In this document: piece by piece, positions 12,241 to 53,398 of the stretch | Layout of the letters: each line of letters opens with the position of its first letter | Numbering within the stretch: the first letter of the stretch is position 1 | Assembly (NCBI GenBank): GCA_964016885.1 | Contig: OZ024742.1 | Span: 116,312,001-116,376,000, forward strand | Direction of reading: 5' to 3' | Length of the DNA stretch: 64,000 nucleotides | DNA from: Eledone cirrhosa | Lineage: Eukaryota | Program-made: the position numbers and the translations under genes | The notes under the pieces: generated by a model | The model's input: only the letters and a program-made list of their open reading frames with translations | What the model was told of the DNA's origin: nothing | Databases searched by the model: none

Positions 12241-12408
12241 TATAATGAAATGACAGGAGGCTGGATTTGTGTAAATCCCTTGAAAGATTTATTATACTAT
12301 GATCATTTCAATGACCGGGTTCCGTATGAATCCGGTCATTGAAATGATCATAGTATAATAAACCTTTCAAGGATTTACACAAATCCAGCCTCCTGTCATT
12401 TCATTATA
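12241..12408. repeat. Fold-back inverted repeat made of the 3' half of a hammerhead module (family of 22088-22145)
   Basis: Near-perfect arms around the imperfect hairpin accgggttccgtatgaatccggt. Each arm carries GAAA-tgatca-TA-gtat-aataaa but no CTGATGA. A further partial arm lies at 12441-12473. Confidence 0.9.
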
Positions 12409-12486
12409 TATATATATATATATATATATATATATATATATATAATGAAATGACAGGAGGCTGGATTTGTGTATATATATATATGT

Positions 12487-13226
12487 ATACAATAGTACAG
12501 CATATTCGAAGTTCGATCAGCAGCCAAGCCAACGAATGCCTTCAGCAGTACAGCCAAGCACTCGACAAGGAATAAACCTCAGAGTAATAACATACAGTTT
12601 AAAGGGCTTTGCAAATTGAAAATAGCGACCGCTAATTTAGCCGCATGATCTGTAGCAAAGAAAGAACTGACTAATGAGAAAAGGAAATACACACACACAC
12701 ATATATATATATACATATAAAAATATACATACATACATATATGCACATATCTGTATATATAACATACCCGGACCGACACTTGGAAATTACTGAACATCCA
12801 AGTGAGGTTTCTGTAAATCCGAAATCAACAAAATCCGCTTGTGGTGTATACAAGTTAGGTTTCTGGAAGATCGAACAGAGGAATTTACTTTCTCAACAGG
12901 CTCTCGTTCTAACCCAGAACCAGGTGTGAAGCACATGTTACTCCAAAGGGAGGTAACCCCGGTTTCTGGCGGTCAATTAAAATATTATGGGCAATGGAAA
13001 AAAATGACATACACATACTGAATTAAGCACTCAATCAGACCGTTATTAAACAAACTTAAATAATTAACCAATCAATGGAATTGTCAAATTAAATTAATCA
13101 ATTAATCATTAAGTCTAGGAAATAGTAATACAATAGTACAGCATATTCGAATCTCGATCAGCAGCTAAGCCAACGAATGCCTGCAACAGTGGAGCCAAGC
13201 ATTCGACAGGGAATAAACCTCAGAGT
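12487..13226 (-). mobile_element. TA-flanked element with ~100-bp terminal direct repeats (12487-12585, 13128-13226; period ~641) containing a variant HHR-like motif at 12952-13041
   Basis: The direct repeat is read directly. Minus strand: ggt-CTGATTGA-gtgcttaatt...aattgaccgcca-GAAA-ccgggg-TT-acc; stem I is only 3 bp. Confidence 0.6.
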
Positions 13227-13301
13227 ATATATATATTATAGAGTAAAATGAGAGGAGGTTGGACAGTTTGTATTCCTTTAGATGTTATTACTGCAAACAC
13301 T

Positions 13302-13359
13302 ACACTATGCTCATCTCAGTAGCCAGGTTACGAATGAATCCGGTTACATCTTCAGGTAT
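13302..13359 (-). ncRNA. Degenerate type I hammerhead ribozyme (family of 22088)
   Basis: atac-CTGAAGA-tgtaaccggattc...ctggctact-GAGA-tgagca-TA-gtgt; GAAA has mutated to GAGA. Confidence 0.6.
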
Positions 13360-49307: not shown

Positions 49308-49378
49308 TATTTTATTATGCGCATTTCAAAAACAAATATCATCATGGGATGATATTTGCGTTCCCATCAGATAAAATA
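49308..49378 (-). ncRNA. HHR of the 34027 family with a core mutation (CTGATGG)
   Basis: tattttat-CTGATGG-...caaatatcatc/gatgatatttg...-GAAA-tgcgca-TA-ataaaata. Confidence 0.72.
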
Positions 49379-52179
49379 GGGAGACATGATATGAAGCTTA
49401 AAAAACACTTGCGAGCAGTGAAGTTTCAAATCAACATATGAAAAATAAAATTGGAGGGATATATGAGATGGGAAAAAAGGAAAGGAAGGGGGAAAGAAAA
49501 GGTAAGGAAGAGGAAGAAAAAGTATATAAATAGAAGAAAAAATATAATAATAAGGAAAGAATGACGGAGGAGGAGTATAAGAAGGAAGGATGAAAGAGGG
49601 GGAGAAAATGAGTGAGAGAGAGAGAGATAACCTTTAATACTGGGAAACACTGTCTCACAGAGAAAAAATTAAAAAACCCGTTGTAAGATAATACATAATC
49701 TAAAAAAATTAAGAGGTTTATGAATGGTGATGCTTATGATTAAAGAAAAAGGAATTAAGAATACTATTTATTTAAGGTTTATATATATAAAGGGGTTAAT
49801 AATATGTGCGAAAAGGAATTTATTAAAATGTATTATTAAAATAAAATATATTAAGAGGATAAGGTGAATGAAGATAAGGTTAAATGAAATATGAACTTAG
49901 AGGAATTAATTAGGATCCAAATATATATATATATATATTTCCGCACTCCCTCACTGCTTGGTAATGTGGAATATCCGGGCTTCACACCTTTCACGCGTGT
50001 TATTTTTTACATTTTCGAAAGCTGGGTGATTCAGTTCCTTGGAGCAACAAATCTAGTCCCACACTTTTGAAGGTTTATTATAACATTCTGTGGCTCTTTT
50101 GAGCTTGCGCATTTTTCAGGTCTAGTTTACTATTTTTTAAGGCAACGCTTGTAATAACTCTTGTTAAACATGATATATATTAATAATAAATTATCGTAGT
50201 AAGAGCACACAGAAAATTTCGCATACCAACGGATCTGGAGAACACACTCTGGAAGTGAATATGTACCTCCTAGCGAAGATTGGTGTCGATTATCGTCTTT
50301 TTATACGACTTAACAAATCTGTGCACCAAAGTCCGATGCTGCATCCGGAAGTGAAGCATTTTCTCTAGTTTCCATAGTCGATGCAAAGACCGCTTACGAA
50401 GAACATTTTTGTTTTTATAGTAAGCTTTCAATTAAGACTCTATATTATCTTTATTGACAATTCTATACACAGCCTTTCTTTGCAATACCATTTGTCATAC
50501 TTATGTTCAGATATAAATAAGCCAATTTGTGATCGAATATATTAATAATATCAAACATTTTTAAATGCACGTGACACCTGTAGTCGACTATCATAGTAAA
50601 CTAAGTACATTAAATTAAAAATTGATATTTTTGCGAATAAATTTCAAAAGTATGAAATTCTACAATTACAAGGTTATTTTAGAACACAATTTTACAATTA
50701 CAAAGTTATTTTAGATTGAAATTACAAAATGTTACATTACAAAGTTCTTTTTGAATCAAAATTACAAAGTTTACAATCATAATATAACTGCCACATCACT
50801 ATAAATTATCAATTTATTATTGAATATACGCTATCTTGGAGTGTTTTAAAATGTTTTACAAACAAAAATTTACAAACTTTTGTAAAAACGATAGTTTTAG
50901 AAATATTTGTACAAACTTTTACAAACAAAATTTAAAAAAATATATTTTTACAAATCTTTACAAACAAATTATTCTTACACATTTTTACAAAGTGCAGTTT
51001 CTATTACAATCCGAACCCTGCCTATATTCCATTACACTATATAAAGAGGAACAAGATACAAAGATATTAAATAAATATATTTTACATAATAGTTGTTATA
51101 GTTAAATTAATAAAAATTAAATATTACATACAAATAGTCTAACATAATAATAAAAAGAATAATCTAACCTAATAATAATAAAATAATCTAACATAAAACG
51201 AACAATAATATGGACATATAGACAAGTAAATACAATACAACCAATATTCTAAGCATGTTATAACAAAAAAATAGTTAATATAAATTTAAAAATTCATATA
51301 TAAATTAACGATATAACTTTCCAAAACGAGAAAAATATTTTGATGATATACAATAAAATACAGGAGAAAGATTCGAAAGCGAAACGATAAATATACGTGC
51401 AAACTAAACGCTTTTGAGCAACAATTACTCTCGTTGATGGATTAGAAAATAAGACGATGAAATTAGCCAATAAGACGATACGTTACAAAACATGTTTGGA
51501 AGGAATCGCCACCGCCAGCGATACTTCTTGAATCTTTTATTCACAAGCTACGCATATATTGTAAGACATGCAGACTTAAAACATTCTGTTGTTAGTCACT
51601 GCGTGTCTAACATATGTGCTCTTATGGTTTATGGAAATGGTAGAAAGTGTTGTCCACAATAAACAAGTTAATGGCTTTTAGATCTGAAAGAGAAAAGAAT
51701 AACAATGAAGAAAAACGCCAAAGGGTAGTATGGAAAGCTGTTTTGTTCTACAATTATGTAGGAGAATGAAGCAATTCATGAAAACGAAATATGTATACTT
51801 GTAAACGACTACATGGTGCATGGAACATTTACAATTCTGTCCACGTTAAAAGTAAAACCATTCCGTACTAATGCAGTGAAATAATAGATACCTTTCCATT
51901 TAATTCTATGTAGAAATATGTATTTCTACATGGAAATACATATATACAGAGATATAAATATATCTCTATAATCAAATATGTATATATATGTGTGTGTCTT
52001 TATGTATATGTACATATATATATGTATGTATGTAGGTATGTGTATATATATATATATATATGATGGTGATGATGATGATGGCTGCAACTCGATTACGAAT
52101 AATGCGATCGTTTGATACTTAAGCATGAGCATCACAAATGTGGCTTTTTAGTCCTACTAGAGACTTGCCTATGGCCTGC

Positions 52180-52610
52180 AATACTATGCATCGCAAAAAA
52201 TGTCACATATCAAACGATGCCTACGCTTGAAAATTGTATAAGTGAGGAAAGGCTTTGTACTGGACCAATCTTACTCTTTGAATATCTAATGCATTTACCC
52301 AAAAAGAAGAATTGGTTTCCATCATTGGATGCAAACGAAGGCGCAGTGTGTATATCAGAGTGACTTTCTCCTAGAGAGATTTCTTAATGAAGACTTGGTG
52401 TCTCTCACTCCAAAAAATAAAAGAATAAAATTTCTTGGATAGCTGTTTACTCTCCTAAGCTCATTCGATCTTTGACTGGTTTGTTTTTCATCCTGCAGGG
52501 TGCCCCAAATTATCCTCTTTGGGTTGCCGGCTTAGTTGCCTGAGAGACCCGAACATGCACAGATTGTACAAGTTTACATGTTACCAGTAGAGCTGAAGAG
52601 CGACCTTACA
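52180..52610 (-). mobile_element. Older diverged relative of the ~600-bp RTE-like element
   Basis: Shares ttgactggtttg..cctgcagg, gggttgcc..ttagttgcc and acatgttaccagtag with 16975-17130. Confidence 0.55.
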
Positions 52611-52977
52611 CACACTCATATATGTATATATATATATATATATATATATATATATATATATATATATATATATATATATATATATATATATATATATATA
52701 CATACATAAATACATGCATACATATAGGCGAACCAATAGTAAGTTAGAGTTGCACATTCAGAATCTATACATATAATATATATGCCAAATTGGCGTATAC
52801 CTTTCTGGGTACTGAATGAACCGGGCTTGTTAAATTAAATCCATCATTAATCGCAACAATTGTTTCTATATTAGGTAAGGGTGGCAAATTTCCAAAAATA
52901 ATAGTAGATCCTCCACTATATATAAATATATATATATATATTTGTTTATCTTATATATATATATATATATATATATA

Positions 52978-53398
52978 TATATTAATAAAAGAAATTCCAA
53001 CTTTGTCTGATTTACCCGTTTTATTTACAATCCTTTAAAATGTATAATGATATTAGAAGGAAATAGTATGGTAGAATATTAAATGTTAAGTGTTAATTGA
53101 ACAAGTACTTTCATGATTTCGCAATCTTCAGGTTCATAATGTGTGGTGACAGTCAAGTTTGCAATTTTCAACAGTTGAAAATTGCAAACTTGACTGTCAC
53201 CACACAATATGAACCTGAAGATTGCGAAAGCATGAGAGTACTTGTTCAATTAGCACTTAACATTTAATATTCTACCATACTATTTCATTCTAATACCATT
53301 ATGAATTTTATAGGATTGTAAATAAAACGAGTAAATCAGACAAAGTTGGAATTCCTTTTATTAATATAATCTTCTATACACAATCATACACAACCGTG
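52978..53398. mobile_element. Solo PLE 3' end (pseudo-LTR) in fold-back configuration, homologous to 46729-46952
   Basis: Arms meet at ttttcaacagttgaaaa (~53173). HHR-like tgaac-CTGAAGA-ttgc-GAAA-gcatgagagtac-TT-gttca at 53210-53248 (+), with a counterpart at 53098-53136 (-). Confidence 0.88.

Follow-up and report, generated by a model that had tools for sequence, protein, structure and literature searches.

Hammerhead motifs between (TA)n tracts of Eledone cirrhosa are mostly truncated, two-armed ends of Penelope-like elements with paired short and long 3' ends

What copies hammerhead ribozyme motifs, in several families, into the (TA)n tracts of a cephalopod genome? The question is raised by a 64,000-nucleotide stretch of the Eledone cirrhosa assembly (contig OZ024742.1, positions 116,312,001 to 116,376,000), hereafter the window, in which the original prediction placed 14 intact type I hammerheads. 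A strict type I descriptor, requiring the first stem II pair and a stem II region of at most 60 nt, returned only 6 sites and missed 8; it was replaced by a relaxed descriptor permitting a single unpaired position at the stem II base and a stem II region of up to 75 nt, with stem III counted as a palindrome and stem I of at least 4 bp. The relaxed descriptor finds 14 perfect cores in the window, compared with a mean of 0.07 (maximum 1) in 30 dinucleotide shuffles, and the predicted motifs are thus upheld as real sequence motifs. Thirteen of the 14 predicted sites are recovered, and the fourteenth of the scan lies at 53131-. The site predicted at 35573- belongs to a hammerhead family (family I, 2268 first-look candidates genome-wide) whose members have a 4-bp stem II; the window copy, which the scan missed, carries one change breaking this stem. 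Motifs in both the window and a genome sample contain CUGANGA, GAAA, an NUH site, and helices I–III in type I order. In addition, eight degenerate copies (13355-, 22436+, 34490-, 35200-, 42673-, 46926-, 49370-, and 53215+) and four half-ribozymes (both arms of 12109-12412, 34145+, and 42693+) are present, in rough agreement with the predicted nine and four, and the copies fall into 10–12 families rather than 9–10.

The predicted density of about one ribozyme per 3 kb is a local one: 11 of the 14 scan-detected intact sites fall within 32.9–42.4 kb of the window, and the sampled genome holds 78 motifs in 739 kb (0–2 in shuffles), that is, 1 per 9.5 kb or about 100 per Mb. By extrapolation from this 739-kb sample, the genome is estimated to contain approximately 3×10^5 hammerhead motifs. 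Each of the 14 intact sites is followed by a (TA)4+ tract, 24–147 nt downstream (null 0.39 for a distance of up to 200 nt), and AATAAA follows within 30 nt in seven of them, as had been noticed for several motifs. A role of AATAAA as a poly(A) signal was rejected as unlikely because the copies stop at fixed internal sites without poly(A), and the parent transcript continues into the ORF.

The possibility that chance motifs in AT-rich repeats explain the hits is practically negligible, even though Rfam gives no match and monomer folds are weak: no hammerhead reached the gathering threshold, none appeared at E up to 10 in 34550-35060, none was among the matches listed in a broader search (150 of 366, nearly all hairpin or TA-repeat artefacts), and minimum-free-energy folding of eight monomers lacked the predicted three-helix fold in seven. 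Such a reading is refuted by the excess over shuffles in both window and genome sample and by covariation, and the hammerheads are also positioned in pseudo-LTRs (pLTRs). Compensatory stem changes are present among copies collected on the core and stem III alone, where stem I pair 4 of H-like copies is C-G in 39, U-G in 7, and A-U in 6 of 59, and stem II pair 3 of B/D-like copies is A-U in 57 and G-C in 50 of 113. The pair G10.1-C11.1 occurs in 2 of the 78 sampled motifs (A-U 28, U.U 20, G.U 11), and U.U occupies this position in 59/59 H-like and 22/22 F-like copies. In type I hammerheads, G10.1-C11.1 is described as highly conserved, not obligatory, and U.U is reported in an axolotl family (PMC7229834).

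To which elements do these motifs belong? They are almost certainly terminal-repeat segments (pLTR/5' UTR) of several Penelope-like element (PLE) families, together with ORF-less derivatives, inserted in (TA)n (Table 1). The link is direct in families B and C, whose intact RT–GIY-YIG frames are bounded by the same hammerheads. In the family B parent (locus L093), a 766-aa frame lies between two hammerheads; it has no Pfam match, and its RT and endonuclease motifs were read by eye. Family C occurs as 4.2-kb tandems, and its 775-aa frame is matched by the Pfam models RVT_1 (E 2.9e-6, short of the curated cut-off) and GIY-YIG (E 3.2e-6). An RT search yielded 19,546 candidates, of which 150 were scored, and many of these have open 775-aa frames; no splice joint between the two frames of the family C body was found in the contigs of three runs of unspecified kind. 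GIY-YIG remnants lie upstream on the same strand in families E (L148) and H (L247, L248), pLTRs with hammerheads are tandem or inverted at loci L091-L095, and no parent ORF for families D and G was found among the loci examined. A Hydra-type frame following a TA tract in L330/L388 was considered as the family H parent and rejected, since its endonuclease is unlike that of L177/L247 and no second H end follows.

Table 1. Hammerhead-related features in the window (strand "." as given for two-armed or composite features)
Feature	Positions	Strand	Remarks
Family F two-armed insertion	12109..12412	.	Two half-ribozymes, each arm cut short within stem II; long end left, short right
F-related degenerate hammerhead	13301..13359	-	GAGA replaces GAAA
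Family F single arm	21470..22199	+	About 700 nt of a 1.92-kb unit without ORF; hammerhead 22092-22141 intact; short end abuts (TA)n
Family J degenerate hammerhead	22431..22475	+	U4 to A; intact relative in locus L009
Family G two-armed insertion	26361..26485	.	Minus: tail-only long arm; plus: short arm, hammerhead 26421-26460
Family M pieces	28085..28245	.	TA-flanked, very abundant module; PLE-like two-armed layout; intact hammerhead core not found
Family A retrozyme-like tandem	32795..33845	-	523-bp unit; hammerheads 33565-33496, 33043-32974; long end 32795
Family B two-armed insertion (pLTR of Hydra-type PLE)	33899..34236	.	Long arm: hammerhead 34089-34035 (-); short arm: 3' half only
H-type degenerate hammerhead	34423..34500	-	C3 to U
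Family E two-armed insertion	34544..35092	.	Hammerheads 34644-34600 (-), 34894-34938 (+); short end left, long right
H-type degenerate hammerhead	35131..35200	-	C3 to U
Family I retrozyme-like unit	35309..35825	-	Hammerhead core at 35609 (predicted as 35573-), stem II mutated
Family D two-armed insertion	35824..36260	.	Hammerheads 36010-35962 (-), 36161-36209 (+); long end left, short right
Family A2 two-armed insertion	39959..40651	.	Hammerheads 40177-40110 (-), 40523-40590 (+); A relative, compensatory stem changes
Family K two-armed module	40690..40900	.	Family trait: CAGAAGA replaces CUGANGA core
Family H two-armed insertion	42210..42410	.	Hammerheads 42343-42305 (-), 42352-42390 (+); both arms begin 44 nt before cleavage site
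Family N two-armed insertion	42540..42775	.	Hammerheads degenerate and half
Family C PLE, 5'-truncated, broken	46713..49233	-	RT and GIY-YIG remnants, pLTR, degenerate hammerhead near 46900, long end
Family B single arm	49261..49900	-	Nested in TA tract beside C element; core has one change
Family C mini two-armed insertion	52978..53400	.	Hammerheads 53131-53103 (-), 53215-53243 (+, degenerate); centre is predicted transcription start

By their motifs, families B, E, and H appear to belong to the Hydra clade of PLEs and family C appears Neptune-like. The family B parent resembles Hydra-clade PLEs (Craig et al. 2021, PMC8557442) in its C-terminal GIY-YIG, DKT and RW motifs (both in the L093 frame), and CxCX5C linker (seen in L048 and L177), and E and H retain endonuclease remnants; no CCHH was seen, and the pLTR hammerhead and the (TA)n target, the latter seen in the flanks of B, E, and H insertions, are likewise shared. 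Because both flanks are (TA)n, any target-site duplication is hidden. In contrast to the Hydra-clade PLEs described there, the B unit measures 3.5 kb and 5'-UTR minis occur in huge numbers; the passages of that paper considered here name no cephalopod Hydra family. Family C, as judged by its motifs, shares with Neptune-type EN+ PLEs (PMC8557442) the GxKF and DKG motifs, the CX4CxxC linker, the CCHH-type GIY-YIG, tandem and inverted copies, and a pLTR hammerhead, and differs in a tail of about 55–60 nt; the Fig. 1 legend of PMC8557442 mentions an ORF1 joined by a frameshift.

The view of the motifs as PLE-mobilised ribozyme retroelements is supported as to the PLE link, the (TA)n targeting, and the abundance, but most modules are not self-standing elements; they represent PLE ends inserted as two arms, truncated on the 5' side and in most cases without a promoter. 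Nor are they wholly invisible to ORF annotation, as had been supposed, since at 46713-49233 a broken PLE ORF, 84–94% identical to the intact 775-aa frame over three main segments, is joined to a family C hammerhead. That the short modules are independent small retrozymes, transcribed, self-cleaving, and spreading alone, is true in outline for A, I, and F, the only window families shown to consist of ORF-less tandem units, each unit bearing one hammerhead. Families A and I (type I; loci L242, with 11 units in one arm, L243, and L291) are abundant, A having 2190 first-look candidates beside those of I, and in a 10-unit family A array one private change is present in every unit and also in the inverted arm. 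As a general explanation, however, it is improbable: the ends of B, C, E, and H belong to ORF-bearing elements, most short copies begin at a predicted start site without the TATA region, K and M have multiplied although lacking an intact core, and arm starts show no pile-up at the cleavage site (8/86 within -1 to +2 versus 5.6 expected, p 0.20). Most short modules are probably promoterless dead copies. The 1-nt core insertion of family G is a family trait.

Each family possesses two fixed 3' ends, short (S) and long (L), joined to (TA)n. The 3' ends are bimodal in families H, E, B, D, and F, and two ends are seen by eye in A and C. Among 87 two-armed insertions at hammerhead-selected loci, 83 pair one S with one L end (H 22/23, E 12/12, B 19/22, D 18/18, F 12/12), two are S/S (both in B), none is L/L, and two are unclassified; accordingly, the tail lies at one end only in the same 83 of 87. 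These tails, about 70–140 nt in the Hydra-type families, exceed the 30–40 bp described for PLEs (PMC8557442). Where loci were selected by the tail, S is the end of the partner arm in 19/19 H and 20/21 B pairs, and one L/L pair occurs in family C (L052). The pairing loci are best-scoring matches, so that young copies are favoured, and include some duplicates (L058/L059, L378/L379). An RCTCY motif follows the S site on its 3' side at a distance of 5–13 nt in B, D, E, F, G, and H, and it follows the L site at 2–7 nt in B and F.

The 5' ends are also restricted. The short modules of each hotspot family have one fixed start site, reading through the uncut ribozyme: -44 in family H (of 30 arms selected by the tail, 16 begin between -44 and -38), -164 in E, -126 in B, and -127 to -136 in D, whereas family F shows no sharp hotspot. 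In family H, a TATA box lies 29 nt upstream of the -44 hotspot, which is also used in single-armed copies, and in the family E insertion of the window the arm junction coincides with the family's hotspot. Since the B and E hotspots lie on TA-like palindromic words, microhomology may contribute to them. An extra G, as would come from the RNA cap, accounts for 4 of 6 non-templated bases in H and 3 of 21 starts in M, a weak, suggestive signature. Separately, four single arms abutting (TA)n (L338, L339, L375, and L177, picked out post hoc) begin within 1 nt of the cleavage site.

The mirror-image S/L insertions likely record an enzyme copying one RNA onto both cut DNA strands. We regard it as fairly probable that the hammerhead ends are written into (TA)n through an enzyme nicking both strands and copying a single uncleaved RNA from two fixed start sites within it, and the element of twin priming on one RNA is favoured somewhat. 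A pLTR promoter would fire 44–165 nt upstream of the cleavage site, thereby placing the hammerhead in the 5' UTR. The RT–GIY-YIG protein would bind small hairpins just 3' of S and L and nick both strands of the self-complementary (TA)n, one strand being primed at S and the other at L. Both cDNAs would extend to the RNA 5' end, the L cDNA displacing the S cDNA, and would join by microhomology, so that the arms stand head to head and one end bears a tail. If the S/L sites are primed in their 5' copy, the products would be tiny ORF-less modules without the upstream promoter, probably dead, and if they are primed in their 3' copy, ORF-bearing arms; the tandem ORF-less units of A and I would probably be copies of circles that arise when the ribozyme cleaves and ligates. 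Since new insertions would retain TA flanks, insertions would nest and cluster. The parent ribozymes quite probably cleave under some condition. The fullest form of the model, in which PLE integration is twin priming on one RNA with each hairpin-marked start site coupled to one nicked (TA)n strand, and priming on 5'-UTR copies gave about 300,000 minis mapping their parents' transcription starts, has in our estimate an even chance of being right.

Self-priming, in which a single cDNA or antisense strand folds back and serves as its own template for the inverted arm (proposed by Arkhipova et al. 2013, PMC3846280), fits the haplotypes shared by the arms, the arm junctions, which overlap by 0–4 nt, often at short palindromes, and the position of the S arm inside the L arm in 23 of the 53 S/L insertions in families H, E, and B, as at 12109-12412. 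However, neither arm contains the other in the remaining 30 (3-nt tolerance), and for 16 of the 87 two-armed insertions the L arm begins downstream of the cleavage site and the S arm further 5', so that neither can have been copied from the other and self-priming is excluded as the sole route for these 16 loci. The family A loci L009, L016, L022, L028, and L030 fail in both directions, and the stop of the second arm at the fixed S site is left unexplained; self-priming is accordingly very unlikely as the general origin of the inverted arm.

A second alternative is that two RNAs, one per protein subunit and possibly held together by the palindromic stem III, serve one DNA strand each, with S imposed on the first and L on the second by asymmetry of the complex in which they are primed. 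It explains fully overlapping arms without strand displacement, stem III is palindromic in 40 of the 78 sampled motifs, and a dimeric PLE protein is predicted in PMC11167929. Furthermore, discordant sites in L150 (family E, 7/21) and in L036/L093 (2/16) indicate that some insertions used two templates, L150 and L036 carrying arms of different haplotype. Usually, however, the arms come from the same source haplotype: discordant polymorphic sites number 9/132 in E and 10/289 in B within insertions and 35% and 26% between them, so that the arms are concordant at 93–97% of sites compared with 65–74% between insertions, and the two RNAs would almost always have to share one source gene. Family H offers little polymorphism contrast (3/187 discordant within versus 2.5%). 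The S arm also reaches further 5' in 27 of the 33 unequal pairs (L arm in 6, equal in 21). The arms could also be alike if two RNAs stemmed from the same source gene or if gene conversion acted afterwards, yet two RNAs as the rule seem unlikely.

Twin priming on one RNA finds its closest experimental counterpart in Poseidon PAc of Anolis (Frangieh et al. 2024, PMC11167929), whose protein in vitro nicks and extends both strands, uses unprocessed RNA, and starts at two internal sites bounding the tail, with an AC-rich stem-loop as in the family C tail. By contrast, the results considered from that study show no difference in start site between strands and do not link the two sites to inverted insertions, whereas the ends here pair strictly, with TA microhomology to the target. 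Metazoan PLEs have minimal type I hammerheads (Cervera and de la Peña 2014, PMC4209133) for which dimer cleavage is described and which share with the present motifs a conserved core, a helix III that is palindromic, the occurrence of many families in one genome, and a majority of single copies with some opposite-strand pairs 100–700 bp apart; they differ in that G10.1-C11.1 is rare here, helix III is longer (2–4 bp per half), and the estimated 3×10^5 copies compare with about 2,000–9,000 in the genomes reported there. Families A and I resemble metazoan non-LTR retrozymes (PMC7229834; bioRxiv 10.64898/2026.07.22.740005), ORF-less 0.4–0.5 kb tandem units with one type I hammerhead each, for which PLE mobilisation and PLE origin have been proposed. 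In the present material, the two-armed S/L footprint of PLEs is directly visible, and the 1.92-kb unit of family F exceeds the 51–972 bp reported there.

The ribozymes and their PLE hosts are of an already described kind, most copies are probably inert, and the novelty is smaller than first supposed. What is added is the genome-wide count, the S/L end pairing, the shared arm haplotype, and the fixed 5' starts; a search of mainly non-subscription papers, in their main texts, on cephalopod hammerheads and PLE twin priming found no statement of the S/L rule or of the count, and Repbase, Dfam, or supplements may contain these families. The origin of the inverted ends and one-sided tails of PLEs is stated as open in PMC8557442 and PMC11167929. 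The TA-flanked insertions provide countable footprints separating the models through end pairing, arm haplotypes, start sites, and the shared hairpin motif, and the existing in vitro assay has natural substrates in the young, intact families C and B. PLE ends with hammerheads, at about 100 motifs per Mb, form a sizeable, probably mislabelled part of the genome; the words ribozyme and hammerhead are absent from a recent octopus repeat annotation. If true, twin priming would solve the tail-and-inversion puzzle, and the approximately 300,000 minis would be the largest hammerhead load against the published figures compared (axolotl, 120,000).

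A relaxed type I hammerhead descriptor recovers 14 perfect cores in the AT-rich, TA-tract-laden window, against a mean of 0.07 in 30 dinucleotide shuffles, and all 14 are followed by a TA tract 24–147 nt downstream (null 0.39); a strict descriptor yields 6 sites. The relaxed scan retrieves 13 of the 14 intact hammerheads of the original prediction. The remaining one, 35573-, stands as a copy of family I (families A–N being the hammerhead-bearing or look-alike repeat groups), but a single stem II change places it outside the perfect cores. The predicted degenerate and half motifs are borne out, 8 and 4, respectively, being assigned to families, as is stem covariation, which appears in copies gathered by core and stem III alone. 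Rfam, proposed as a further check, does not detect the hammerheads (0 at gathering; none at E up to 10 in 34550–35060). In 74 evenly spaced 10-kb stretches of the 3.0-Gb genome (739,400 bases), the same relaxed descriptor finds 78 motifs in 37 stretches, compared with 0–2 per shuffle (10 shuffles of the whole sample), and a TA tract follows within 200 nt for 64 of the 78 (null 0.33); a few of the 78 may be chance matches. The extrapolated genome load is 3.1×10^5 motifs (bootstrap 2.2–4.2×10^5), from systematic positions excluding unplaced contigs and with 13 of the 78 motifs from two arrays. The sampled density is one per 9.5 kb, and the one ribozyme per 3 kb reported earlier describes a local cluster. 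Published hammerhead counts include approximately 9,000 for Xenopus (PMC4209133) and, as given in PMC7229834, 5,000 for mussel and 120,000 for axolotl.

Each family possesses two fixed 3' ends, a short one (S) and a long one (L), both joined to (TA)n. In the two-armed insertions, two inverted copies of one element end lie head to head, with the ribozymes directed outward, and one arm ends at S and the other at L in 83 of 87 insertions from hammerhead-selected loci and their flanks (one duplicate pair included; S/S 2, L/L 0, unclassified 2). In loci selected by tail, the partner arm ends at S in 19/19 cases for family H and 20/21 for family B, and the eight classifiable insertions in the window (F, G, B, E, D, A2, H, and C) all keep the rule; a family C pair at locus L052 is an L/L exception. 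Shortly 3' of the S site, six families carry an RCTCY motif that in most cases closes on a GAG further downstream; the motif recurs shortly 3' of L in both families where the RNA could be traced.

Family ends and other features of the window (3' ends counted from the predicted hammerhead cleavage site)
Feature	Window position	3' ends (S/L)	Observation
Family H		+19/+89	
Family G		~+23/+94	
Family B	34089-, 49370-	+45/+135	hammerheads
Family D		+46/+139	
Family E		+57/+153	
Family F		+55/+197	
Family A		+61/+178	
Family C	53131-, 53215+, near 46900-	~+124/+180	hammerheads
Family C, broken copy	46713-49233		
Arms of A2, relative of A	40055-40645		7/13 substitutions G vs A, one direction; RNA editing or CpG decay could each fit
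Family K module	40690-40900		very abundant, two-armed, TA-flanked, fixed 5' start
Family M module	28085-28245		very abundant, two-armed, TA-flanked, fixed 5' start
Short tail-to-tail inverted copies of element end across TA tract	12378-12471, 32757-32820		suggest a second priming event within the same tract
Long inverted repeats at TA tracts	31567-31852, 37118-37480, 38577-39020, 59680-60587		no hammerhead seen; two-armed insertions, probably of older date
TA-flanked 0.6-kb repeat	16522-17130, 45785-46390		two copies; 48 matches in 40 loci; no hammerhead detected
Non-LTR retrotransposon	2402-5472 (+)		RVT_1 E 4e-20; stop and frameshift; C-terminal zinc knuckle and restriction-like endonuclease by eye
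GIY-YIG-like 3' fragment	17700-18550 (+)		decayed; weak tblastn match, E 0.33
Degenerate J-like motif	near 18490		follows the GIY-YIG-like fragment

The two arms of one insertion are closely related. Polymorphic sites are discordant between arms at 9/132 in family E and 10/289 in family B, compared with 35% and 26%, respectively, between insertions; source variants are common to both arms in these families, with L150 deviating, and family H is uninformative. Two RNAs from one source gene might supply such arms, although we consider this unlikely. The S arm reaches further 5' in 27 insertions, the L arm in 6, and both equally in 21. In 16 of the 87 pairs, neither arm can have templated the other, because the L arm begins past the cleavage site and the S arm begins further 5'. 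A self-priming origin of the inverted arms, as modelled in PMC3846280, cannot yield these 16 non-nested pairs and appears very improbable. The simplest model, which we favour with some reserve, is twin priming on one RNA: two cDNAs would be primed on a single RNA, at S on one strand and at L on the other, followed by strand displacement and microhomology joining of the arms. In family A, ten units of an array carry a private change that recurs in the inverted arm. This is compatible with a circular template, but equally with a source array that was already uniform or with later amplification at the locus.

Within a family, arms tend to begin at a single position: -44 in H, -164 in E, -126 in B, and -127 to -136 in D. 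Two short ORF-less copies (minis) of family C start at -69/-72, and 16 of 30 arm starts in tail-selected H loci fall at -44 to -38; in family F the starts are not sharply focused. The H start site has a TATA box 29 nt upstream, and TATA-like boxes lie before the C and D starts. Arm-to-arm annealing fails to explain the H and D sites, because single-armed copies begin there too. No pile-up of arm starts is detected at the cleavage site (8/86, p 0.20). We infer that mostly uncut RNA, with its 5' end at the start site of the pseudo-LTR (pLTR), serves as template, and that the short modules are 5' UTR copies lacking the promoter.

Dimer cleavage was reportedly described by Lunse et al. in 2017. 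Among eight monomer sequences folded, only that of family A gives the expected three-helix fold, which accords with reports of dimer or protein-assisted cleavage (PMC4209133, PMC11167929). CAGAAGA replaces CUGANGA family-wide in K, and no intact CUGANGA core was found among 44 anchor matches of K or 71 of M in the collected loci; both families may be ribozyme-less ends of Penelope-like elements (PLEs) or carriers of another fold. Because the abundant K and M keep the two-armed layout without an intact core, their sequences suggest that cleavage may be dispensable for insertion.

Parent elements are recognizable for several families. At L093, family B hammerheads flank a 766-aa frame with Hydra motifs. 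In family C, 4.2-kb tandems contain an RT-GIY-YIG frame of 775 aa, again between hammerhead ends. Family C is young, since many of the 150 scored among 19,546 RT candidates have this frame open. A second family C frame of 496 aa overlaps the RT-EN frame by ~90 nt (L095:4154-5641 and 5551-7875; also L091-L094), and the overlap contains a U-UUU-UUA slippery site; a -1 ribosomal frameshift likely joins the two, with no strong structure predicted 3' of the site. Hydra-type endonuclease remnants lie upstream on the same strand in families E and H, and no parent element was found for D or G among the collected loci. A near-complete Hydra-type frame with one frameshift at L388, directly after an H end and TA tract, is probably a separate nested element. 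ORF-less tandem units occur in families A (523 bp), I (0.41–0.48 kb), and F (1.92 kb); a family A insertion at L242 (G000:C5:11373382-11379652) has 11 hammerhead units in one arm against a single unit in its inverted partner, with the S end left and the L end right.

These elements add new members to kinds already known. They match PLEs described in PMC4209133, with hammerheads in pLTRs and in scattered truncated copies, and the TA-targeting Hydra PLEs of PMC8557442, and the A, I, and F units resemble retrozymes, presented as PLE derivatives in PMC7229834 and bioRxiv 10.64898/2026.07.22.740005. The literature already describes, in words, a one-sided tail and hammerhead pairs on opposite strands, and S/L pairing is derived here from counts of insertion ends; the motif count, start-site-anchored minis, and strict S/L pairing were not found in the main texts of the papers covered by the literature search. 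As reported in PMC11167929, a PLE protein in vitro nicks and extends both strands, two internal start sites bound the tail, and uncut RNA serves as template. To that account, the genomic counts add one start site per strand and, usually, one source for both arms.
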